In this document: one piece after another, positions 3,522-25,607 of the stretch
Layout of the letters: each line of letters starts with the position of its first letter
How positions within the stretch are numbered: position 1 is the first letter of the stretch
Assembly (NCBI GenBank): GCA_963789265.1
Contig: CAWBKB010000001.1
Location: 1,056,001-1,120,000 of the forward strand
Length of the DNA: 64,000 nucleotides
Source: an uncultured delta proteobacterium
GTDB lineage: Bacteria > Desulfobacterota > Desulfomonilia > Desulfomonilales > Desulfomonilaceae
Direction: 5' to 3'
Notes under the pieces: generated by a model
Told to the model about the DNA's origin: nothing
Seen by the model: the letters and a program-made list of their open reading frames with translations, nothing else
Database searches by the model: none
Program-made: the position numbers and the translations under genes

Positions 3522-6198
<2,677 letters not shown>

Positions 6199-9175: not shown

Positions 9176-11260
9176 ATGGACATGGATCCAAAGGACCCAC
9201 GCGGCCCCCATTTTTACCGGAAGCGGAATCCCGCGGCCCATCTTTCCGCTGATGAGGCGGGACCTACGGAAACTATTGACCTGAATGCGCTGTTTTCTTT
9301 TGAGGCAAGCGAATCCGGCTCCTTCGATCTCTCAAAGGTGAGCCATTCGACCTTTGCGAAACTACTTCAGGCGTTGTCAGTGCCTACACTGCTGATAGCA
9401 CGCTCTCATGCCATAAAATTTGCAAATTCGGCTTTTGTGAAGACCACTCGTGACAGTTTCGATTTGACAGGCGCAACATTCTCGGCGCTCTTTCCGAATC
9501 CGAGAGAGGCGCGCCAGGCTCAGCTACTTCTGGAGAAAGTGTTCACAGAAAGAAAGGCTGAGGTCCGGGAAAAAGTCCTGAAGATTCGGAAGATCAAACT
9601 GTGGGCCAGGATTCACCTACGGACTATACGGTTGGGCGCCGAACAGCTCGCGTTGGTCCAGATCGAGAACCTGACGGCTCAAAAACAACTTCTGAGCGTG
9701 CAAAAGTACAAGAAATTGGTGAAAATATTTCCCATTGGTATTGCAGAATTTGCTTTGCCGCGTCAACTCGACCTTTCCCTGTCCCCCGATAAACTACTTT
9801 CCAACGTTCTCGATGCCGGGGTTGTCGACGGCAACGAAAAGTTCGCAAACATCTATCAGCGCCGGAGCATTTCAGACTTGGCAGGCACAAGATTGGGGAC
9901 ACTCCTGCCGTGCAAGGGGCGAGGGGAAATCCTCTACAAACAGTGGGCACATGCGGGTTTTCCGATTCGCTCCTTCGAGACCCGGGAGGCGGACGCTTCA
10001 GGAAAGGCCCATTTCTTTGAAAACACCCTTATCGGCAATGTAAGCGATCAGCGCTTGCTGGGATTCTGGTGGCTCAAGCTCGACGTGACCGAAAAGAAAA
10101 AGGCCGAAGAAGAATTCGCAAAATCTCAAAGGATTGAATCCCTTGGAATACTTGCCGGAGGCATAGCGCACGATTTCAACAACCTACTCACTGCGATGTT
10201 GGGGAACATTTCCCTGGCTCAGACTTACCTAACCCCGGACCAGAAAGCCTACGATTGGCTCGAAGCGGCGGCCGCAGCCTCTAAACGAGCGCAAGCGCTG
10301 ACCCACCAACTCCTGACTTTCTCCAAAGGGGGAGCACCGATTAAAAAGACTGCCTCTGTCGCAGAGTTGCTTAAGGATACGGTGGAGTTTGCCCTGCGAG
10401 GGTCAAATGTCCACCATGAGCTTTCCATTGCTGATAGCTTGTTCCCTGTGGAAATGGACCAGGGACAGATCAGCCAAGTGGTCTACAACCTAGTTATCAA
10501 CGCTCTTCAGGCAATGCCCGACGGAGGCACAATCATGGTTCAGGCCGAAAACTGTGTTGTTCGTCCGGAATACTTGCTTCCCCTGAGTCCTGGCAATTAC
10601 GTGAGAATCCGGATTCAGGATGCAGGGGTGGGTATACCGCCGGGTATCTTGCAGAAGATTTTCGATCCGTATTTCAGTACCAAGGAAGGCGGAAGCGGCC
10701 TCGGACTTTCAACGGCGTACTCAATAATCAAGAAACACGACGGGCTGATCACCGTAAATTCTGAGGTGGGGCTGGGAAGCACGTTCTACATCTATCTGCC
10801 GGCTTCGCAGAGATTTTCCGCCGCAATGGACTCTCAAGCTACTGAAGAAGAAACTCCCTGCTATAAAGGCAAGATCCTTGTCATGGACGATGAAGAATGT
10901 ATACGAGACTTGATGAGGGATTTGCTCGCACACATCGGGTATGCAGTTTGTTTGGTAAAGGACGGGTACGAGGCGGTGGCTGAATATCAGCGGGCAAAGG
11001 ATGCCGGAAAGCCCTTTGACGCAGTAATCATGGATCTAACCGTACCAGGTGGGATGGGCGGCCGGGAGGCGATCCAGCGCCTGCTGAAGATTGATCCGGA
11101 TGTTCTGGCCATTGTATCCAGCGGTTATTCCGACGATCCGGTATTGGCGGATTTCAAAAGCTATGGCTTTGCAGGTGTGCTATCCAAGCCATATACATCG
11201 GACGCTGTGATGGACCTGCTGGAATCGGTCATGAAAAGATCCTCGGATCCGACCCTCTAG
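9176..11260 (+). CDS. PAS-containing hybrid sensor histidine kinase / response regulator
   Basis: H-box AGGIAHDFNNLL, N-box NLVINA, DAGVGI, GSGLGLS; receiver with MDDE, IMDLT, SKPY. Confidence 0.95.
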   Translation: MDMDPKDPRGPHFYRKRNPAAHLSADEAGPTETIDLNALFSFEASESGSFDLSKVSHSTFAKLLQALSVPTLLIARSHAIKFANSAFVKTTRDSFDLTGATFSALFPNPREARQAQLLLEKVFTERKAEVREKVLKIRKIKLWARIHLRTIRLGAEQLALVQIENLTAQKQLLSVQKYKKLVKIFPIGIAEFALPRQLDLSLSPDKLLSNVLDAGVVDGNEKFANIYQRRSISDLAGTRLGTLLPCKGRGEILYKQWAHAGFPIRSFETREADASGKAHFFENTLIGNVSDQRLLGFWWLKLDVTEKKKAEEEFAKSQRIESLGILAGGIAHDFNNLLTAMLGNISLAQTYLTPDQKAYDWLEAAAAASKRAQALTHQLLTFSKGGAPIKKTASVAELLKDTVEFALRGSNVHHELSIADSLFPVEMDQGQISQVVYNLVINALQAMPDGGTIMVQAENCVVRPEYLLPLSPGNYVRIRIQDAGVGIPPGILQKIFDPYFSTKEGGSGLGLSTAYSIIKKHDGLITVNSEVGLGSTFYIYLPASQRFSAAMDSQATEEETPCYKGKILVMDDEECIRDLMRDLLAHIGYAVCLVKDGYEAVAEYQRAKDAGKPFDAVIMDLTVPGGMGGREAIQRLLKIDPDVLAIVSSGYSDDPVLADFKSYGFAGVLSKPYTSDAVMDLLESVMKRSSDPTL

Positions 11261-11372
11261 TATTGCCGTCGGAAGGATATGGCCCAGCAGCCTTGCCAGG
11301 CAAAGATCGGGCCACACTTCGTGGCCTGGATCTAATCTTCTGCGGAAACTCTATTCAGGCAGCGCATGCCTC

Positions 11373-12690
11373 TTGAAGTCTGTACGAAGCTCGGAGGATG
11401 GCTTGCCCCCAGCCGACAGGAATGCTCTCGCAAAGAAGCGTCGGATTAGTGCCATTAGCCTGGTTAAAGACGTCCGAGCGGGGTACTCTGATGAGCAGCT
11501 TCGAGTGAAATACCGGGTTACACGCGACGGTCTGCAATACTTGCTGACGAGATTGGTCGATTCCGGTTTGATCACGCACTTGGAACTATACAGTCGGCAG
11601 TCTCTCTCTGAGAGTGATCTCATGAGAGCTTTCTCGGAGGATGCCGCCCCCGTGTTAAAGTGCATACGTTGCGGCAATGTCCTGCCGGAGGGCGTTGGTT
11701 CATGCCCGCACTGTGACACTTTAGCAGTAGAATTGCAGGAATCGCTCGTCATCGAGCCCGAGGTATCGCTTGGACCAAGCAATCCCCTGCCTGATTTGAC
11801 TCGCACTCCGGGAGATCAATTCATACCAACCGACCCCTTCGGGTCCCCCGGAAACGCCCTGGAGATACTGGAGGTCAAGCCGAACATCCGAGACGTGGCT
11901 CAACAGGGCGACGGTTTAAAGGGGCAGGCTTTGCTGAAAGCGGCAAGTCGAGGGATCTATGAACAGGTTGAGGCCCTAATGAATTCCGGGGTGAATGCAG
12001 ATTCACGCAGCAAGTACGGAAATACTCCGTTAATACGGGCCGCGTTCAAAGGCCATCCCGAGGTGGCGAAGCTGCTCCTGGACAGGGGCGCGGATGTGAA
12101 TGCAGAGAATGTCCAAGGGAATACCGCCCTAATTTTCGCCGTCAGTGCCGGTCATGCGGAAGTGGTGGAGCTTCTCCTGAATCATGGGGCAAATGCCGGT
12201 ACGAAGGCTCCGGACGGCAACACCGCGCTGAACGATTGCATGTCGGGGGGAAAATGCTTTCATTGTCGAATCGCTTATAGACCATGGCGCAGATGTCAAT
12301 GAGGCGAACAACAACGGCGATACTCCGTTAATGATTGCTTCCGACAAAGGCCAAACGAAGATCGTAGAGATTGTCATTAAGGCTGGAGCTCAAATAGACG
12401 CCGGCAACAAGCATTGGAACACCGCGCTCATGAAGGCTGCATTCAGAGGCCATGAGTCCGTAGTAAGGCTGTTGCTGGCAAGTGGCGCCCGCGTAGACTC
12501 CAGAAACACGTACGGCAATACAGCTCTTATGAAAGCCTGTCATCCGGGTCACCTTCAGATTGCCAGGCTGCTTCTGGAAGCTGGGGCCGACGTCAATGCG
12601 AAAGACCTCGACGGCGTAACGCCCATGATGAGGGCTGTTAGAACGCAAAGAAATGACCTCATGCATCTTCTAGCCCAATATGGGGGGTAA
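11373..12690 (+). CDS. Unnamed helical repeat domain + Zn ribbon + ankyrin repeats (apparent +1 frameshift at ~12231)
   Basis: KKRRISAISLVKDVRAGYSDEQLRVKYRVTRDGLQYLLTRLVDSG; CIRC/CPHC; many GNT(P/A)L ankyrin units; removing one A joins 11373-12302 to 12331-12690. Confidence 0.85.
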
Positions 12691-12692
12691 GA

Positions 12693-13223
12693 TTGGAAGC
12701 ACGGAAAAAGATTAGAGCTAAAGAGGTTGTGCAAGACCTTCGGTCCGGCACGCCGACCGCTGACCTCCTGAGAAAATATGAACTGTCCCGGAATGGGCTG
12801 GCCATTGTGCTACAAAAGCTTGTTGATGCCAAAGTTTTGAGTCGGTCCGACCTCGAAGATTGGCGATCTCTCAATCATGATGTAACAGTAATTAGGGGCG
12901 TTCGAGAAGACGAGCGAGTAAAGATAGATTTTCCCTTGGTGGTTCAAGACTCCGACTTCCCTTATGCGAAAGGTTTTGTGCGCGACTTATCTGAAAAAGG
13001 ACTCGGGACGTATGGGATTACCGCCCGCGTTGGCGAGACAAAAGGATTGGTGCTACACCTGGAGCGGCCGAACCGGCATGCGCACATAAAATTTCACGCG
13101 CAATGCCGATGGGTGGAACGCTCGGCAGGGGATAGTCCAAGATGCACGGCGGGATTTGAAATAACACATATTGAAGACGCAGCATTAGCCGGGTTACGAA
13201 ACCTCCTTGAAAAAAAGAAATAA
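12693..13223 (+). CDS. Unnamed helical repeat domain + PilZ
   Basis: N-terminal KKIRAKEVVQDLRSG...KYELSRNGL; PilZ motifs REDER and DLSEKG, CRWV, GFEI. Confidence 0.85.
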   Translation: MEARKKIRAKEVVQDLRSGTPTADLLRKYELSRNGLAIVLQKLVDAKVLSRSDLEDWRSLNHDVTVIRGVREDERVKIDFPLVVQDSDFPYAKGFVRDLSEKGLGTYGITARVGETKGLVLHLERPNRHAHIKFHAQCRWVERSAGDSPRCTAGFEITHIEDAALAGLRNLLEKKK

Positions 13224-13244
13224 CCGTCTGCTTATGGGATAACC

Positions 13245-13556
13245 ATGGCGAAGAAGAAGATAAAGGCAAGGGAGTTGCTAACCGATGTTAGAGCCGGATT
13301 GGATGATGAGGCACTGATGCAGAAGTACAGTCTTTCAGCTCGTGGAGTGCTTCAGGCCCTGAACAAGCTCATCGCGCACGGGCTCATGTCTCCGGAAGAG
13401 CTCATCGAACGCAGATCCTTGGCTAAAACCGTTTATATGCCTGTCTTCACGTGCTCTGCCTGTGGGAACACACAGTTCTCGAAAGTGGAGAAGTGTCCGC
13501 GATGTGGTGCCAGGTTGAGAGCTTCCGGCGAGGGGAAGTCGGATTTCAGCTATTAG
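13245..13556 (+). CDS. Unnamed helical repeat domain + Zn ribbon
   Basis: KKKIKARELLTDVRAGLDDEALMQKYSLSARGV..ALNKL; CSAC...CPRC. Confidence 0.85.
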   Translation: MAKKKIKARELLTDVRAGLDDEALMQKYSLSARGVLQALNKLIAHGLMSPEELIERRSLAKTVYMPVFTCSACGNTQFSKVEKCPRCGARLRASGEGKSDFSY

Positions 13557-13578
13557 ATTGGAGGTTTCAGGGGGGATA

Positions 13579-14163
13579 ATGGAGAAGAAGCGGCAAATCA
13601 ACGGCAAAAATATCCTCAGTGATCTGAGATCAGGAATGGCTGACCGCCAATTGCAAGTGAAATATAAGCTGTCGAGCAAGAGCCTGGAATCCATTTTGAG
13701 CAAGCTGGTGAAGTGCGGCGCTGTCAGCCATGCCGAACTATACGAAAAGTCCTCATCATACAGAGAGAGCGTTAACCATGTTCAAGCACGAAAGCATCCC
13801 AGGGCGGAGTTGGATGTTTACGTGCCGGTCTATGACATCGCCGACTCGGCCGTGGGGGTGCTAAGGGACATATCGGAGAACGGGTTAAGGCTGGCCGGGA
13901 TCAAGGTCCAGGTTGGACAGGCGAAGACATTTCAGATTCCGGTGGATATGTTCATGGAGGCCCAGCCTCTGTTGATTATCGCTGAGTGCAAGTGGGTTCA
14001 AATAAAGAAGAAGAGCCGACATTACGCAGTGGCGGGATTCGAGCTAATAGATCTTCCGGACGCAGATCGTGAGACTCTCAGAGATTTCATCAACCTGTTG
14101 CTGCTTAAGAGCCCGGAAAACGGCAGCCCTCGGACTGAGAAGGAGCTACCTCCCGCAAGATAA
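13579..14163 (+). CDS. Unnamed helical repeat domain + PilZ
   Basis: KRQINGKNILSDLRSGMADRQLQVKYKLSSKSLESILSKLV; RKHPR and DISENG. Confidence 0.85.
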   Translation: MEKKRQINGKNILSDLRSGMADRQLQVKYKLSSKSLESILSKLVKCGAVSHAELYEKSSSYRESVNHVQARKHPRAELDVYVPVYDIADSAVGVLRDISENGLRLAGIKVQVGQAKTFQIPVDMFMEAQPLLIIAECKWVQIKKKSRHYAVAGFELIDLPDADRETLRDFINLLLLKSPENGSPRTEKELPPAR

Positions 14164-14345
14164 ATGGAAGATTCGGCATGGATCGAAAAAGAACAAGGGC
14201 CGATTGACCGATCGGAGGGCAGGTGAGGATGCCGCACTGTGCAAGGTTCTCAAGCCCAACCAATTCACGGTAAAGTGTCAGGTTTGCCCGCACGTGCAAT
14301 CTTTTGTAACGACTTATCGTCATGACTCTTATGAAGGGGGGATCT

Positions 14346-15188
14346 GTGGTCAAAAGAGCAATCAACGCAAAGCAAGCCGTGGCAGACATCCGTTCAGGCA
14401 TGGATGATGCTGCTCTCATGAGCAAGCACCATCTCTCTTCTCAAGGACTTCAAAGTCTCCTTGACAAGCTAGTGAAGGGCGGGTTCATAGATTTGTCCGA
14501 GATAGCAGGCCGTTTGCCGGGTTTCTTGGGGGTGGTCCGTGTATCTGAAGCTGCTCCATCGGCGCACGGAAGCAAAGAGACGAATGGCTCCCAAGCGCTT
14601 CAGACCAAGTCGCCGCCGCTGATCAATGCACAGGAGGCGGCCAGAGACATCAGATGGGGTGTAGCCGATACGGCCCTTATGTCCAAGTATCGCCTTTCAC
14701 CGGCGGGACTCAGCAGCCTTTTCGACAAGCTACTTTCGTCAGGACTGATAACGCAGTCTGACCTTGAACGGAGAGATCTTCTGGCTGACCGTACTGTCAA
14801 CCTGAAAGAAGAAATGCTCAGCTTCGCTGACGCACTGGACCGGCTCGGGCTTAATGTTCCAATTTCAGCACCCGGAGAACGAAGGGCTAAGCCCAAACAA
14901 GTGAAAGTCGGTCATCCTGCTGACAAAAGGACCAAAGCGGCAGAGACTATCTCGACCGGCAAGGGCAACAAAACTTCGCTGGAAGCAAGAGTAAGCCCCG
15001 AGCCGCATGTGACTCCATGGTACGACAGACCTACGATTGTAATGCTCCTATTGATCGGCCTCTTTCCTCTGGGGCTGTACGCTCTTTACCGAAAATCTAC
15101 GTTTTCTATTCGTACTAAATTGTCGATGATGGCAGCTTGGGTCCTGCTGGCTACCATCTGTATAATTTTGGTCATGCGGGGGATATAG
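14346..15188 (+). CDS. Two copies of the unnamed helical domain + C-terminal membrane hairpin
   Basis: INAKQAVADIRSGMDDAALMSKHHLSSQGLQSLLDKLV and INAQEAARDIRWGVADTALMSKYRLSPAGLSSLFDKLL; PWYDRP followed by two TM helices. Confidence 0.85.
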   Translation: MVKRAINAKQAVADIRSGMDDAALMSKHHLSSQGLQSLLDKLVKGGFIDLSEIAGRLPGFLGVVRVSEAAPSAHGSKETNGSQALQTKSPPLINAQEAARDIRWGVADTALMSKYRLSPAGLSSLFDKLLSSGLITQSDLERRDLLADRTVNLKEEMLSFADALDRLGLNVPISAPGERRAKPKQVKVGHPADKRTKAAETISTGKGNKTSLEARVSPEPHVTPWYDRPTIVMLLLIGLFPLGLYALYRKSTFSIRTKLSMMAAWVLLATICIILVMRGI

Positions 15189-15190
15189 GT

Positions 15191-15742
15191 GTGCTGAGAA
15201 TCAAGGCCAGGGATTTGGCGGCTGATATTCGAGCGCGGCTATCGGACTTTGAGCTGATGTCCCAATACGGATTGTCTTTGAACCAACTGGAATATGTCAT
15301 AGGGCAGCTTGTAGAGTCCGGAACGATAAGGAAGGACGAAATCGAAGAAAGGGGCCCTTTCTTTGATGATCCGGCCAACCGATTAAAGACACGGCGGTTT
15401 CCTAGAACGTATCTAAGGGTCCCCCTCGAGATTGAAGATGTGAATAACTCTGCAAACAAGTGCCTCCTTGTTGATCTGTCCGAAGAAGGGTTCCGGGTGC
15501 GCGGAATTACTTCAGGGGTTGTGGGTAAAGAAAAGACCTTTCTGGTTTATCCAAATGGGGTTCGCGGGAGGACGGTTAGACTTAGCGCTACATGCGTGTG
15601 GGCCAAGCTGGATTTAGATGCCGGGTTCTCAGGAGAGGCAGGATTCAAAATAATCAGCATCTCGGATAATGATATGCTTGCACTGAAAAAGGCCGCAAAA
15701 CTTCTAGGTCTCGGAGACCGCAATCTCTCGGCAGCAAGATGA
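15191..15742 (+). CDS. Unnamed helical repeat domain + PilZ
   Basis: RIKARDLAADIRARLSDFELMSQYGLSLNQL..VIGQLVESG; RRFPR and DLSEEG. Confidence 0.85.
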   Translation: MLRIKARDLAADIRARLSDFELMSQYGLSLNQLEYVIGQLVESGTIRKDEIEERGPFFDDPANRLKTRRFPRTYLRVPLEIEDVNNSANKCLLVDLSEEGFRVRGITSGVVGKEKTFLVYPNGVRGRTVRLSATCVWAKLDLDAGFSGEAGFKIISISDNDMLALKKAAKLLGLGDRNLSAAR

Positions 15743-15794
15743 ATCGGCTCATAAAGAGATGTCCTGGACCTGCGTGAGGTTCAACGGGAGCATA

Positions 15795-16478
15795 ATGAAA
15801 TCGAAGATAATTTGGAAGGAGATTGTAAAAGATATTTCCCGCGGAATGAGTGACGCAGAGCTCATGAACAAGCACGAATTGGCAAGAGATCAGCTTAAAT
15901 CCATATTCAAGCAGCTTGCCGGACTGCGCGAAAGAAGAATTCAAATGCTGGTCCGCGATCTCAGATCCGGGATGGCCCCTCTGGAGCTAAAGAGAAAATA
16001 TCATCTCTCGGCCAAAGGCTTCGAAAGTGCCCTCAAGTTGCTTCTTGAGGTAAATGCTATCACTTCGACTGAATTCAAGATCTTCAAATTTGCTGGTGAC
16101 GACAAGTTAGCTCGGCAGGACTCGCGTCGTACACCACGGAGTAACCCCATCCCAGTCGTCACGGTCTACGAAAACGGCAAGCCGGAAACAAGGTATGTAG
16201 TCCGGGATATTTCTGAGAAAGGCATAGGTGTCATTGGGATCAGGGCACAAATCGGCGAGACTAAATCTCTTGCCGTTGTCGGTGATGAATTCGGACAGAT
16301 AGCCCCGTTTGAATTCGAGGTCCAATGCCGCTGGACAAAACATCTGAATCTCAACGGGCAGATATGCTCGGGTTTTAGTGTCACGAATATAAGCGAACAA
16401 GACCTATTTCGGCTCAGGGAATTCATCCAGGGGTTCACGTTCGGGACCGACGAAGCCGGAGACTCCATAGTCAATTAA
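15795..16478 (+). CDS. Two copies of the unnamed helical domain + PilZ
   Basis: KIIWKEIVKDISRGMSDAELMNKHEL and LVRDLRSGMAPLELKRKYHLSAKGF; RRTPR and DISEKG. Confidence 0.85.
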   Translation: MKSKIIWKEIVKDISRGMSDAELMNKHELARDQLKSIFKQLAGLRERRIQMLVRDLRSGMAPLELKRKYHLSAKGFESALKLLLEVNAITSTEFKIFKFAGDDKLARQDSRRTPRSNPIPVVTVYENGKPETRYVVRDISEKGIGVIGIRAQIGETKSLAVVGDEFGQIAPFEFEVQCRWTKHLNLNGQICSGFSVTNISEQDLFRLREFIQGFTFGTDEAGDSIVN

Positions 16479-16516
16479 CAGCAAGAGTGGTGGCGATACA
16501 ATGAGCCGGCAACGAT

Positions 16517-18790
16517 TCATCGGTGCCGTTTGAGGCCCAATCTCTCCAGCAGTCCCTTCTTAGTTCTCGTACCCGGGGTGCTCAGTTCGTCCTGCAATTT
16601 TCTTAGCGCTGCATGCAGCTCCTGGGTGTCGGCAAACCTGTCGTCGGGATTCTTTGCCGTCATTTTCTGAAGCAGTTTAAACATCGAGTCCGGGACAGGC
16701 GGTTGAAAATCCTTGAACGGAGGCAACGGCTCATGGACATGCTTCTGGAAAATGACGTAAGCCGACTCGCCATGGAAAGGTGGGGAACCGCTCAGCAGAT
16801 GGTACAGGGTTATCCCCAGCGAATAGATGTCTGAACGTATATCCAAAGTGCGGGAGCCTTTTGCCTGCTCAGGTGAGAAATACAGCGGAGTGCCGCACGA
16901 GATCCCGGTCTGCGTTATGCCGGAATCCTGGGAGTCCAGATAATTTTTGGCCAAACCGAGGTCGGCAAGTCTTGCTTCGCCCTTGTTGGTGAAGAGAATG
17001 TTGGCCGGCTTGATATCTCGATGCAGGATGTTGTTTTCTTCGGCAACACTCAAGGCGCGGGCAATGTCATTTGCTATTTGTAAGACTTTTTCCACAGGGA
17101 ATCGTCCCATCCTGGCCAGCATGGACGCTGCGTTGCCTCCGTCTACGTAAGGCATCACAAGAAAATGATGCCCGTCTTCCAGCCCCACGTTCATCACGCC
17201 GACTATGTTCGGATGTTGTAATTTCGCCGCGGACCTTGCCTCGCGTATGAAGCGTTTGACAAAGATCGGGTCTTTCTCGGCGAGATGCGCGTGAAGGACT
17301 TTGACCGCGACGGGGATATCCAGAGCTATGTGGTGCCCTTTGAACACTCCGCCCATGCCGCCCCCACCTATTTTGTAGAAAAGCCGACATCCTCCAATCG
17401 TTTGACCGATTAACTGCTCGCCGAGGCTATCCGGCCTCGTGTCCGCGAAGGGCACAGTCATGATACGTCCGCAGCTTATACACTTGCCTTTGCGGCCCAA
17501 GTAGCGCGTCGGAACGACGTGAACATGGCCGCATTCGCAGGCGAATCGGATTCTCGGATCGGTCTGCCGCCGAGCCCTTGAAAGCCCCGCTCCCTCCTCA
17601 ACCTTTTCGCTGGAAAAAAGTTCCGTCTCCTTCGTGGGATCGGGCAGCATATCCGTCTGCATCGCACGAATTGCATCCATCTCCAATTCTGTGAACATAC
17701 TGGTGGAAAAAGCCGCAGTCTCCTCGAAAACGGACGGGTCTTGCAGCGCCCGGTCGATGAACGTCTTCAGTTTAGTCTCACCACCGGGGAGAAAGGAAAC
17801 GAACTGCGCTTTCACCCGGTTTGTGTCGTCATTCTCTTCCCTGGGGTCCGATTCGGATACTCTTGCTATGACCCAGACAGGTTCGCCTCCTTCCGGGAGT
17901 GGCAGATGAATCTTCAGTGCAGCGGTGACTCCCGGATCCGGCGTGTCAGGCAAGTCCAGCAGTGCCCAGCCGTAGGAAAGTCGGTCCGATGTCCCTTCTT
18001 TCCAAGTCTTGTTGTCCAGCGAATAGCTGACAGGAGCCACCAAAGGAATTCCAGGAGAGGGGTCCACCGCGAATGAACCGGTTAACTCACGACCTTCCTC
18101 ATTAGTCTCCGCTTCAGGAGATCCCGATGTGACAGGCGCATGGGCCACCTTTCCAGCCTCCACATCCTCTACGAGGACCTCGAAATCGTGCCGCGCTGCG
18201 CCGGCGGACGAAAGGGCATCCAGGATCTGGTCATAGTCTGGAATAAAACGCTTTTGTTCATCGGTCACTTTGCCAAGCAGATCATTGGCCAGAGTAAGGA
18301 GACCTTGCTCAATGCAAACGGTAATAAGATCGGAAATTAAGTCGCCCCTTTCCGCCGGCGTGAGGGTCTCGTCACTCAGAATTTGGTCCCGGAGCCGCAG
18401 GGCTTCATCAACATTTTCCAATCTGATGAGACAAGTGGCCGAATAACGGAAGAGATCGGTACGGAATGCGGGCGACGATGCCAACGCCTTCTTGAATTCT
18501 TCCAGCGCCTCCTCGTACAAGTCCATGCCCATGTAGGCCACGCCCAAATCGAAAGCCAAGCGAGGCGAAAAGTCCTCAGACGGCGGGCGCCGAGACTCAG
18601 TAGTTTCTTCCATCTTTTTGACGAACTGAAGGTGAACTATCTTGGCGCGGGCCTTGCGATTATCGGGCTCAACGGTGAGGACGTTCCGGTAGATGAGAAT
18701 GGCATGATCGTACAACCCTTGAGCCTCATAATGCTCCGCTTCCTGCCACATACGAGCCAAGCCTTCGTTGTCAATGTGGGAACTATTCAT
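16517..18790 (-). CDS. Hanks-type Ser/Thr protein kinase with N-terminal TPRs, degenerate PilZ-like domain and Zn ribbon
   Basis: GGGGMG, VAVK, HRDIKPAN, DLG, GTPLYFSPE, DIYSLG; TPR-like N-terminus; CECG...CISC; no TM segment. Confidence 0.93.
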   Translation of the reverse strand: MNSSHIDNEGLARMWQEAEHYEAQGLYDHAILIYRNVLTVEPDNRKARAKIVHLQFVKKMEETTESRRPPSEDFSPRLAFDLGVAYMGMDLYEEALEEFKKALASSPAFRTDLFRYSATCLIRLENVDEALRLRDQILSDETLTPAERGDLISDLITVCIEQGLLTLANDLLGKVTDEQKRFIPDYDQILDALSSAGAARHDFEVLVEDVEAGKVAHAPVTSGSPEAETNEEGRELTGSFAVDPSPGIPLVAPVSYSLDNKTWKEGTSDRLSYGWALLDLPDTPDPGVTAALKIHLPLPEGGEPVWVIARVSESDPREENDDTNRVKAQFVSFLPGGETKLKTFIDRALQDPSVFEETAAFSTSMFTELEMDAIRAMQTDMLPDPTKETELFSSEKVEEGAGLSRARRQTDPRIRFACECGHVHVVPTRYLGRKGKCISCGRIMTVPFADTRPDSLGEQLIGQTIGGCRLFYKIGGGGMGGVFKGHHIALDIPVAVKVLHAHLAEKDPIFVKRFIREARSAAKLQHPNIVGVMNVGLEDGHHFLVMPYVDGGNAASMLARMGRFPVEKVLQIANDIARALSVAEENNILHRDIKPANILFTNKGEARLADLGLAKNYLDSQDSGITQTGISCGTPLYFSPEQAKGSRTLDIRSDIYSLGITLYHLLSGSPPFHGESAYVIFQKHVHEPLPPFKDFQPPVPDSMFKLLQKMTAKNPDDRFADTQELHAALRKLQDELSTPGTRTKKGLLERLGLKRHR

Positions 18791-23958: not shown

Positions 23959-24855
23959 GTGATCATTGAAGTCTGGGCCAAGACCGATGTCGGAAAACAG
24001 CGAAGCACCAATGAGGATTCTCACTGCGTTGATCGTGACCGCGATCTTATCCTCGTCCTCGACGGCATGGGTGGCCATCGAGCGGGGGAAGTCGCTTCGA
24101 GCTTGGCAGCAGATGCTATTTCCTCGTTTTACAAGAAGTATTGCGACGGTCCCGTCAACAGTCCCGACATTTTCGACAACTATGATCATCGTTTCACCTA
24201 TCACACGAACCTGCTCAGACAGGCCGCGTTCATAGCCAATCGGGTGATTTTGGAAAGATCTCTTGAAAATCCGGAGCTTGTCGGCATGGGCAGTACGCTC
24301 GCGGGGATGAGTATACACGATTTCACTATTTCTCTGGTCAACGTTGGTGACACTAGGATGTACCTTGTCAGGAACGGCGTAATGGAGCAGATCTCCAAGG
24401 ATCATACGCTTGCAGAGGATCAGGTGGAACGCGGAATAATGACCCGTGATGAGGTCCAGGATTCACAATTGAGACATATTCTGTCGTCCGTGATCGGGGT
24501 GGATCCCCGGATAAGAGTCCACATGGATGAATTAACGGTATTCCCCGGCGACATGTTTCTTCTCTGCACTGACGGCCTTACCTCGGTTATGAATGACCCG
24601 GAAATTCTACAGGAAATTCTCGCGGACAAGCCGGGCCCCGAGACTCTGGATCGTCTGATTAACGAAGTGAATCGAAGGGGTGGTCCTGATAACACTACAG
24701 TTGCGCTGGCTGCCTTCTCGGAGGAACCTCCGCGGGCGCAAAAGTCCAAGCTGCCGTCCCTTATTGCAAGGGCCTGGGAAATGTTCAAGGGTCGCAAACA
24801 TGACGTTTCAAAAGCAAGACCCCTTGGAGGATACCCATGTTCAAGCTCGTCCTGA
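23959..24855 (+). CDS. PP2C-type Ser/Thr phosphatase (Stp1/PrpC family)
   Basis: TDVG..R..NED, DGMGGH, NVGD.R, LCTDGL, GGPDN.T. Confidence 0.95.
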   Translation: MIIEVWAKTDVGKQRSTNEDSHCVDRDRDLILVLDGMGGHRAGEVASSLAADAISSFYKKYCDGPVNSPDIFDNYDHRFTYHTNLLRQAAFIANRVILERSLENPELVGMGSTLAGMSIHDFTISLVNVGDTRMYLVRNGVMEQISKDHTLAEDQVERGIMTRDEVQDSQLRHILSSVIGVDPRIRVHMDELTVFPGDMFLLCTDGLTSVMNDPEILQEILADKPGPETLDRLINEVNRRGGPDNTTVALAAFSEEPPRAQKSKLPSLIARAWEMFKGRKHDVSKARPLGGYPCSSSS

Positions 24856-25607
24856 AGTTTCAGGATAATGTTCTCCAGGAGTACACATTCGACACGACTC
24901 CTGTCACCATCGGCAGACGCGAAGATAACGATGTCACTATCGACAACATGGCTGTGTCGGGCCATCACGCGCAAATCGAAGAAGAAGAGCCGAACTATTA
25001 TGTTCTTGTAGATCTCGAATCTCTAAACGGTACTTTCTTAAATGAGAAGAAAGTCATGCGCGAAAGGATCTTTGATGGTGACTCTATCATCATAGGTAAA
25101 CATTTTCTCGATTTTGTTGACCTTCGTCCGGAGGATGAGCAGCCGTCCAGAGCAGGATCGTCGGAAGACCGGGGCTTTGCGGGCCGCTCGTTTCGCGACA
25201 CTGTCATTCTCGATACCCAAGCCCAGCAGGAGTTACTCGCCAAACAAGCGGCAGATAAAGGGTTTTCGCAGGATCGACCACCGGAAAAACCCAAGAAAGT
25301 TGAACTGTATGGGTCTGTGACAATCATATCCGGCGGCACCCCGCAGATCATTGATCTCAACAAACGTCTCACTACATGCGGCAAATCAAGCAATTCGGAT
25401 GTCAGGTGTTCCGGACTCCTCGTGGGAAAGACCGCAGCCTTAATCAACAAGAGACCTAACGGTTTCTTCTTAGCCTATGCAGAAGGGCTGAAGAAGCCGG
25501 AAGTCAACGGTAGAGTGGTCACCACGCAGGTGCAACTCCAGGATGGAGATGAAATTATCATTGGAAGCACCCGTATGACATTCAACCTTCGAGAAGAAAT
25601 ATCCTGA
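24837..25607 (+). CDS. Double FHA domain protein
   Basis: IGRREDND..VSGHHA...SLNGTFLN; second degenerate FHA at the C-terminus (CGKSSNSDV...LQDGDEIIIG). Confidence 0.9.
   Translation: MFKLVLKFQDNVLQEYTFDTTPVTIGRREDNDVTIDNMAVSGHHAQIEEEEPNYYVLVDLESLNGTFLNEKKVMRERIFDGDSIIIGKHFLDFVDLRPEDEQPSRAGSSEDRGFAGRSFRDTVILDTQAQQELLAKQAADKGFSQDRPPEKPKKVELYGSVTIISGGTPQIIDLNKRLTTCGKSSNSDVRCSGLLVGKTAALINKRPNGFFLAYAEGLKKPEVNGRVVTTQVQLQDGDEIIIGSTRMTFNLREEIS

Follow-up and report, generated by a model that had tools for sequence, protein, structure and literature searches.

A recurrent N-terminal helical domain combined with PilZ and other partner modules in a seven-gene array of an uncultured Desulfomonilaceae bacterium

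Introduction

A stretch of 64,000 nucleotides from an uncultured delta proteobacterium of the family Desulfomonilaceae (GenBank assembly GCA_963789265.1, contig CAWBKB010000001.1, positions 1,056,001 to 1,120,000 of the forward strand; hereafter the window) contains at positions 11373-16478 a row of seven genes, g1 to g7, in which a short helical segment recurs next to changing partner domains. A preliminary description, made from the sequence alone, took this array for an undescribed modular signalling system built around receptors of cyclic diguanylate (c-di-GMP). The locus raises two questions: what is the recurring segment, referred to here as the N-domain, and do the seven genes act together? 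We find that the N-domain has a known fold but represents a new, so far unnamed domain family. This family appears to be undescribed, as do its confinement to a single bacterial family among the genomes sampled, its size and the large share of the organism's PilZ proteins that carry it, and a pair of neighbouring genes, g3 and g4, forms the conserved core of the array.

Nine copies of one helical domain in seven genes

All seven genes lie on the + strand in the same orientation, in agreement with the preliminary description. With D[VLI][RS]x[GR] as an anchor, nine segments of ~56 residues can be aligned free of gaps; g5 and g7 contain two of them each, the other five genes one each. An independent hidden Markov model (HMM), built from 50 copies that lie in the same genome outside the window, was searched against the 1,324 six-frame open reading frames (ORFs) of the window. 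It matched exactly these nine places, at independent E-values between 5e-12 and 3e-22 (with Z fixed at 85,092); nothing else in the window reached E ≤ 10. This confirms the earlier count of nine copies of one helical domain. The array is organized as follows:

11373-12690, + strand: g1; N-domain (11433-11600), C-terminal extension motif, Zn ribbon (~11658-11714) and ankyrin repeats (~11900-12690)
12693-13223, + strand: g2; N-domain (12699-12866) and PilZ domain (~12903-13211; E 8.4e-8, 32.9 bits)
13245-13556, + strand: g3; N-domain (13248-13415), RRSLAKTVYMP linker and Zn ribbon (~13452-13514)
13579-14163, + strand: g4; N-domain (13585-13752) and PilZ domain (~13783-14091; E 2.4e-8, 34.7 bits)
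14346-15188, + strand: g5; two N-domains (14349-14516 and 14610-14777) and a C-terminal two-helix membrane hairpin (~15027-15185), from HMM and hydropathy
15191-15742, + strand: g6; N-domain (15188-15355) and PilZ domain (~15389-15685; E 1e-6, 29.4 bits)
15795-16478, + strand: g7; truncated N-domain (15795-15962), full N-domain (15921-16088) and PilZ domain (~16122-16430; E 4.7e-6, 27.3 bits)

The first copy in g7 is without helix 4, and the two copies of this gene match positions 2-41 and 10-53 of the HMM profile. Several reading frames extend upstream of the starts given here. The g4 ORF is open from a TTG at 13558 (the start of its ortholog in the congener G001 corresponds to the ATG), g5 from an ATG at 14322 and g7 from an ATG at 15759. 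For g6, the sequence and a comparison with the paralog L010 indicate a likely start at the GTG at 15191, 2 nt past the g5 stop. Depending on these starts, the genes are separated by 2 nt (g1-g2), 21 nt (g2-g3), 1 or 22 nt (g3-g4), 158 or 182 nt (g4-g5), 2 nt (g5-g6, with the GTG start) and 16 or 52 nt (g6-g7). A scan of positions 11000-17000 for consensus promoters and terminators performed no better than shuffled sequences (6 against 4.1 and 5 against 5.3, respectively).

As proteins the array copies are 20-48% identical, so the array members are old paralogs. Every copy but one, for which there is a tie, has a closer relative outside the array. Together with the low identity, this argues against a recent tandem burst. 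In a DNA repeat search of positions 11200-16600 only the ankyrin repeats and a faint similarity of the PilZ regions were found, and the N-domain copies share no DNA repeat.

Partner modules

The combination of the N-domain with exchangeable partners, namely a Zn ribbon with ankyrins, PilZ in four genes, a Zn ribbon alone and a membrane hairpin, was part of the preliminary description and is supported by Pfam matches, motifs and hydropathy. The PilZ domains of g2, g4, g6 and g7 score 27.3-34.7 bits, above the Pfam cut-off of 22.5 (PF07238). All four have kept the RxxxR motif as well as [D/N]xSxxG (REDER...DLSEKG in g2, RKHPR...DISENG in g4, RRFPR...DLSEEG in g6 and RRTPR...DISEKG in g7), which are predicted c-di-GMP sites. 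In an alignment of 12 PilZ proteins the second arginine of RxxxR and the glycine of DxSxxG are invariant, and RxxxR as a whole shows little or no variation. The RxxxR motif starts 9-13 residues past the last N-domain helix in the PilZ fusions.

CxxC...CxxC ribbons are present in g1 and g3, with Pfam Zn-ribbon matches below threshold, and g5 has two C-terminal hydrophobic segments according to its hydropathy profile. For g3 we found 37 homologs, 53-98% identical and none of them named. The alignment of its orthologs (A2) has four conserved cysteine positions, three of them invariant and one nearly so. D14, R16, K27, Y28 and the linker following the domain are invariant as well, and the surface of helix 3 is variable. 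The AlphaFold model of g3 has a mean predicted local distance difference test (pLDDT) score of 73.5, with ~68 for the ribbon part; a fold search with this whole model (domain and Zn ribbon) yielded nothing at E ≤ 0.001, only generic Zn ribbons.

Directly past the N-domain of g1 (~11600-11650) we noted an extension of the form R-x-x-L-(S/T)-(D/E)-(S/T)-Q-h-x-R-A-F-x-E, which is also present in eight small stand-alone members of the family (L006, L008, L014, L016, L019, L028, L035 and L045). The g3 orthologs carry the invariant RRSLAKTVYMP linker in its place.

Fold and nearest relatives of the N-domain

An AlphaFold2 model of the N-domain, with an alignment of 59 sequences (A1) as input, has a pLDDT of 90 and comprises ~55 residues in four helices (7-15, 20-27, 31-43 and 49-55) without any strand. 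The consensus reads x-K-R-K-I-x-A-K-E-h-h-x-D-I-R-x-G-M-x-D-x-E-L-M-x-K-Y-x-L-S-x-K-G-L-Q-S-L-F-K-K-L-V-x-A-G-L-I-x-x-x-E-L-x-x-R. The mean charge of the N-terminal arm is +2.2, that of the remaining domain -0.1.

No named family had been recognized in the preliminary description, and this holds: no Pfam or NCBIfam family matched the N-domain above its cut-off, a Foldseek search against the PDB gave no match at E ≤ 0.001, and a PDB sequence-profile search found nothing at this threshold either (FeoC first with E 0.065, CheF third with E 0.18). The nearest clusters in an ESM Atlas feature search are unnamed hypothetical proteins. When the 59 isolated copies were compared with Pfam, the weak match seen most often was DUF433, with 17 copies and a best E of 0.0019; the other frequent ones were helix-turn-helix (HTH) families.

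The spacing of the helices had been described as HTH-like, and the model with its generic HTH fold matches is consistent with this. In an exhaustive structure alignment against 48,161 representative chains the best Z was 6.3; Z ≥ 5 was reached by 54 chains, Z ≥ 8 by none. By the calibration of the tool, such values indicate a common arrangement and not a family. Nearly all of the top 50 entries listed are HTH or winged-helix cores. The likeness to these proteins (DosR of the LuxR/GerE type, Lrp/AsnC, IdeR, GntR, MarR) lies in the helix core, with VIA-align Z of 5.1-6.3 over 45-54 residues, and the C-terminal domains of DosR and EvgA reach Foldseek TM-scores of up to 0.70. The N-domain differs from HTH DNA-binding domains in that its core is approximately uncharged, no Pfam HTH family is reached above cut-off, and the model is wingless: helix 3 leads through a loop into the fourth helix, and not into a β-hairpin wing.

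DUF433 (PF04255), a small HTH-like domain whose function is unknown and which is a predicted antitoxin partner of PIN-type toxins, is probably the nearest named relative, judging from the sequence profiles. It resembles the N-domain in length and in the register of helix 1, the glycine loop, helix 2 with its aromatic end and helix 3. In a profile-profile comparison by hhalign, columns 6-39 of A1 align to columns 18-52 of a DUF433 alignment of 23 true members (A3), over 34 columns with E 0.0014 and a probability of 17.8%. However, the N-domain never reaches the DUF433 cut-off of 23.6 bits (best whole-protein score 21.7 bits, in L001 and L034), and it lacks the GKPxIxGTR N-terminal hairpin that characterizes DUF433. 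Because of these differences and the low profile-profile probability, the N-domain does not appear to be a member of DUF433. Its own features are the K/R-rich arm, a longer helix 3 (KLxxxG), the fourth helix, the fusions and the tandem copies. Genuine DUF433 genes are found at ten other loci of the same genome (36-95 bits, ORFs of 74-113 aa; including C1:1171038-1171205 and C1:1283520-1283687) and separate cleanly from the N-domain family. Sampled homologs of the N-domain are labelled "hypothetical" or, in some cases, loosely "DUF433 family" (JGI).

A few HTH folds that dock proteins also came up, all below threshold. For the winged helix 2xvc, from ESCRT-III recruitment in archaeal division, the alignment spans 51 residues (Z 5.5, 28% identity); the C-terminal domain of CheF (7od9, 7ovp), a protein annotated as adaptor, gave Z 5.5 with 7od9. 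We take these two domains and FeoC to bind proteins and not DNA. RodZ, which consists of a cytoplasmic HTH and a membrane anchor, as in g5, binds MreB through its N-terminal HTH. None of 2xvc, CheF, FeoC and RodZ is expanded or modular in the way of the N-domain. In the portions of the literature returned by full-text searches, we found no description of the N-domain or of a helical N-domain-PilZ architecture.

A genome-wide family of Desulfomonilaceae

The genome to which the window belongs (6.06 Mb; G000) contains 53 N-domain ORFs with 61 copies (46 single, six double and one triple). As 46 of these genes lie outside the array, the N-domain is not specific to the array. The first copy lies within 25 residues of the N-terminus in 47 of the 53 genes. 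Pfam identified PilZ in seven of the 46 outside genes (five above cut-off), PQQ-type β-propellers in three, Zn ribbons in two and, in a single gene each, ankyrin repeats, pentapeptide repeats and a protein kinase; 27 had no match at E ≤ 1e-3. No small-molecule sensor domain was found by Pfam among these 46 partners. Motif scans of all 53 genes found 17 with a Zn ribbon, 11 with the pair of PilZ motifs and 10 with hydrophobic segments. Stand-alone N-domain mini-proteins exist, and most members of the family are without PilZ. Conversely, most PilZ receptors of this organism carry the N-domain, since eight of the 11 PilZ matches in the six-frame translated genome sit in N-domain ORFs; one more lies beside a two-copy ORF.

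The three propeller fusions are located at C7:460643-462034 (L012), C1:1013942-1015393 (L017) and C6:450711-451937 (L030), and in two of them the propeller is joined via a Zn-ribbon motif. As a crude hydropathy scan shows no membrane segment, these propellers may be cytoplasmic.

The range of the family was estimated from genomes sampled within the phylum and from the names of close homologs. All 12 sampled Desulfomonilaceae relatives contain the N-domain, with 3 to 147 matches each, and none of eight genomes of the sister family does. Desulfomonilaceae have thus amplified the N-domain to dozens of genes per genome and combined it with exchangeable C-terminal parts. When 301 genomes were sampled evenly across ~95 families of the phylum, matches occurred only in Desulfomonilaceae (five of six, plus the own genome), and the names of close homologs point to this family as well. 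In an exhaustive profile search of 1.84 billion cluster representatives, 3,095 matched at E ≤ 1e-3, and 1,973 of these reached E ≤ 1e-10. The best 150 of the 3,095 are a selection biased toward multi-copy proteins and carry no taxonomy. Each of them has two to seven copies; in 145 the first copy begins no more than 25 residues from the N-terminus, and membrane segments, Zn ribbons or PilZ motifs are frequent in the C-terminal parts.

Putative function of the N-domain and of the array

Our tentative preference is for the N-domain as a protein-docking "address" module switched by c-di-GMP. The binding partners of such a module would be further copies of the N-domain or a single common hub. In the array it would gather four c-di-GMP receptors (g2, g4, g6 and g7) with the small Zn-ribbon protein g3, the ankyrin protein g1 as a scaffold and g5 as a membrane-anchored two-copy protein, and the assembled parts would sit beside a Ser/Thr kinase and a histidine kinase. 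Binding of c-di-GMP to PilZ would re-orient or expose the N-domain, as in YcgR and MrkH. Because RxxxR begins so shortly past the last helix, ligand binding should reposition the N-domain, and the PilZ fusions suggest that this would hold whether the domain docks to proteins or binds DNA.

YcgR, MrkH and PlzA share with the PilZ fusions of the array the order of an N-terminal target-binding domain followed by a canonical PilZ domain, with RxxxR in a short linker. In such two-domain proteins c-di-GMP sets the relative position of the domains (10.1101/814665), and the N-domain-PilZ proteins are probably alike in this respect. The resemblance does not extend to the fold of the N-terminal domain, which in our model is all-helical. 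The PilZN-type domains considered here from a survey of such proteins are all PilZ-derived β-barrels (10.1101/814665).

Several features lead us to favour docking over DNA binding: the N-terminal placement, the up to seven tandem copies, the mini-proteins and the membrane-anchored tandem forms; partners that are interaction modules or signalling enzymes and not small-molecule sensors; the uncharged core, together with several stand-alone members whose net charge is neutral or acidic, down to -5; and the helix-3 surface of the g3 orthologs, which drifts while D14, R16, K27, Y28 and the linker stay invariant. The sub-threshold structural matches to the adaptor CheF and to the HTH fold of ESCRT-III recruitment may be cited beside docking. 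Other observations weigh against it. The modelled fold of the N-domain is a classic DNA-binding fold and the N-terminal arm is basic. Helix 3 has K, R, Q, N or S at several exposed positions, members that consist of tandem copies alone have a high positive charge of up to +16, and the conserved charged residues could simply form structural salt bridges. Finally, the only gene family recurring beside 42 family loci is histidine-kinase-like (nine loci, raw count), so no hub partner is in view.

Some of these points fit the alternative that the N-domain is a DNA-binding HTH and the family a set of one-component regulators, expanded in this lineage, whose output domain is N-terminal. In that case the PilZ fusions would be c-di-GMP-responsive, MrkH-like transcription factors and the membrane forms tethered regulators of the ToxR type. 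This is the main rival reading, which we consider possible, if somewhat less likely than docking. The structural matches are mostly to DNA-binding proteins, the weak Pfam matches all fall in HTH families, and both the basic arm with the exposed polar and basic residues of helix 3 and the very basic tandem-only members are as expected for DNA binding. An N-terminal HTH with a C-terminal regulatory domain is, moreover, the usual repressor layout. However, up to seven tandem copies and ankyrin, β-propeller, pentapeptide and kinase partners are unusual for transcription factors. The charge of the core, the acidic stand-alone members and the variable helix-3 surface of the g3 orthologs likewise speak against DNA binding, and no operator-like palindrome stands out in the intergenic gaps (11200-16600). 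If the N-domain does bind DNA, this would be the first HTH-PilZ family of c-di-GMP-responsive regulators found in these searches.

If the docking reading is true, a whole bacterial family routes its PilZ c-di-GMP receptors through one N-terminal module, common to ~40 further proteins per genome, which would be a new output logic for c-di-GMP. It would also add a new Pfam-level family, represented by thousands of proteins in metagenomes from soil and sediment, and a promiscuous adaptor domain of a kind that is rare in bacteria, occurring single, in tandem or on membrane anchors. A bolder form of this reading, which we regard as doubtful, is that N-domains assemble homotypically, as a bacterial counterpart to the death-fold or CARD-type adaptors. 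They would build switchable hubs of most c-di-GMP receptors of Desulfomonilaceae and of kinases, scaffolds and membrane anchors with one to seven copies, with g3-g4 beside the Ser/Thr kinase as the ancestral unit.

Whether the array genes belong together was assessed from their clustering and from related genomes. The array is flanked by two kinase genes:

9176-11260, + strand: hybrid histidine kinase (Pfam HisKA, HATPase_c and receiver)
16517-18790, - strand: Ser/Thr kinase (Pfam Pkinase, TPR), convergent to the array, with N-terminal tetratricopeptide repeats (TPR) and a CxxC...CxxC ribbon

The same array with both flanks, but without g6, is present in the congener G001 at ~83% nucleotide identity, including an ortholog of the histidine kinase in the same position (88% identical) and orthologs of g5 (77% identical, same layout) and g7 (72% identical). 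Four further congeners have only an N-domain-PilZ gene, g3 (71-77%) and g4 (69%) beside the kinase ortholog (72-85%). The Ser/Thr kinase orthologs next to N-domain genes in G001, G002, G003, G005 and G006 are 72-89% identical, and the g3-g4 pair is found in all five congener loci examined. Genes like g3 occur in 30 of 41 sampled genomes of the family, representing 20 of 26 genera. At loci of other genera a g4-like N-domain-PilZ gene directly follows g3 in four of seven cases, twice with overlapping frames. Since the pair is kept in the congeners and at these four loci, g3-g4 is the conserved core, which the Ser/Thr kinase adjoins in each of the five congeners examined, and g1, g5, g6 and g7 joined it later in this lineage. 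The pair is thereby a small, conserved and directly testable unit. At paralogous loci in two congeners, g7-like and g4-like genes are accompanied by a paralogous kinase, and at one of them also by a histidine kinase.

Part of the original proposal, the undescribed modular signalling system, stands: the domain is undescribed, its partners are swapped and the PilZ motifs are intact. A self-contained system of seven parts is not supported, given a family of 53 genes genome-wide, an array without g6 in G001 and three genes at the locus in four congeners. One can go further and regard the array as a historical cluster of paralogs, assembled by duplication and insertion, in which each gene acts alone. 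This is in our view unlikely, although several findings are on its side, and they count against the gathering of array proteins by docking as well. The closest relative of the g6 missing from G001 lies elsewhere, at G000:C1:198783-199336 (73% nucleotide identity). Of the 53 family genes, 36 have no family neighbour within 3 kb, and 53 genes are numerous enough for some clustering by tandem duplication. With most members isolated and a congener that manages without g6, joint action of the array genes is not a necessary assumption. On the other hand, the 17 genes that do have a family neighbour within 3 kb exceed random expectation (mean 3.3, maximum 16 in 2,000 trials), the seven-gene array being the largest cluster and the others pairs. 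The divergence of the array copies, with closer copies elsewhere, also speaks against such a history, as do the conservation of g3-g4 across genera, sometimes with overlapping frames, and the gaps of 1-22 nt, which fit co-transcription.

That the N-domain is a receptor for a small ligand or nucleotide, with a pocket from D13, R15, K26 and Y27, is highly improbable: the conservation of Asp, Arg, Lys and Tyr in a helical domain of small size, the fusion to nucleotide-signalling modules and the existence of small helical c-di-NMP receptors (ComFB) would fit, but Pfam and PDB sequence searches gave no similarity to nucleotide-binding helical families, a four-helix bundle of 55 residues leaves little room for a pocket, and the four residues are explicable as structural salt bridges.

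Neighbouring genes and frame breaks

Pfam detected no PilZ domain in the Ser/Thr kinase of the window. A conserved Ser/Thr at position 30 of the N-domain may be a site of phosphorylation by this kinase. Paralogous kinases beside other N-domain-PilZ arrays have an RxxxR...DxSxxG pair in their non-kinase part. About 5 kb past the Ser/Thr kinase lie a gene for a PP2C-type phosphatase (23959-24855, + strand) and one for an FHA-domain protein (24837-25607, + strand), possibly further parts of Ser/Thr phospho-signalling at this locus. PADLOC assigned no defence family to the N-domain; it matched g1 via the ankyrins only, and classed the flanking kinase as no more than a generic protein kinase.

In the assembly g1 has an apparent stop at 12302, and the ORF 12331-12690 is its continuation past a one-base insertion at 12230; both ORFs match Ank_2 above cut-off (E 3.5e-22 for 11373-12302 and 2.8e-32 for 12331-12690). 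Base 12230 is absent from a short-read soil-metagenome contig that is otherwise identical over 12117-12568. Omitting it gives a continuous frame of 438 aa from 11373 to 12690, whose product matches an intact ortholog of 428 aa in G001 over the full length at 80.8% identity. We therefore rejected the possibility that g1 is a pseudogene.

The essential alaS (alanyl-tRNA synthetase) in the same window is likewise split, into two overlapping ORFs (3567-4340 and 4276-6198, + strand) that match positions 1-227 and 235-548 of Pfam tRNA-synt_2c, which makes indel errors in the assembly likely. Elsewhere in the genome (G000:C1:1573590-1574319), a two-copy N-domain ORF (L002, 139 aa) abuts a frame of 139 aa on the same strand with a PilZ match, and the two are probably one g7-like gene split by a frame error.

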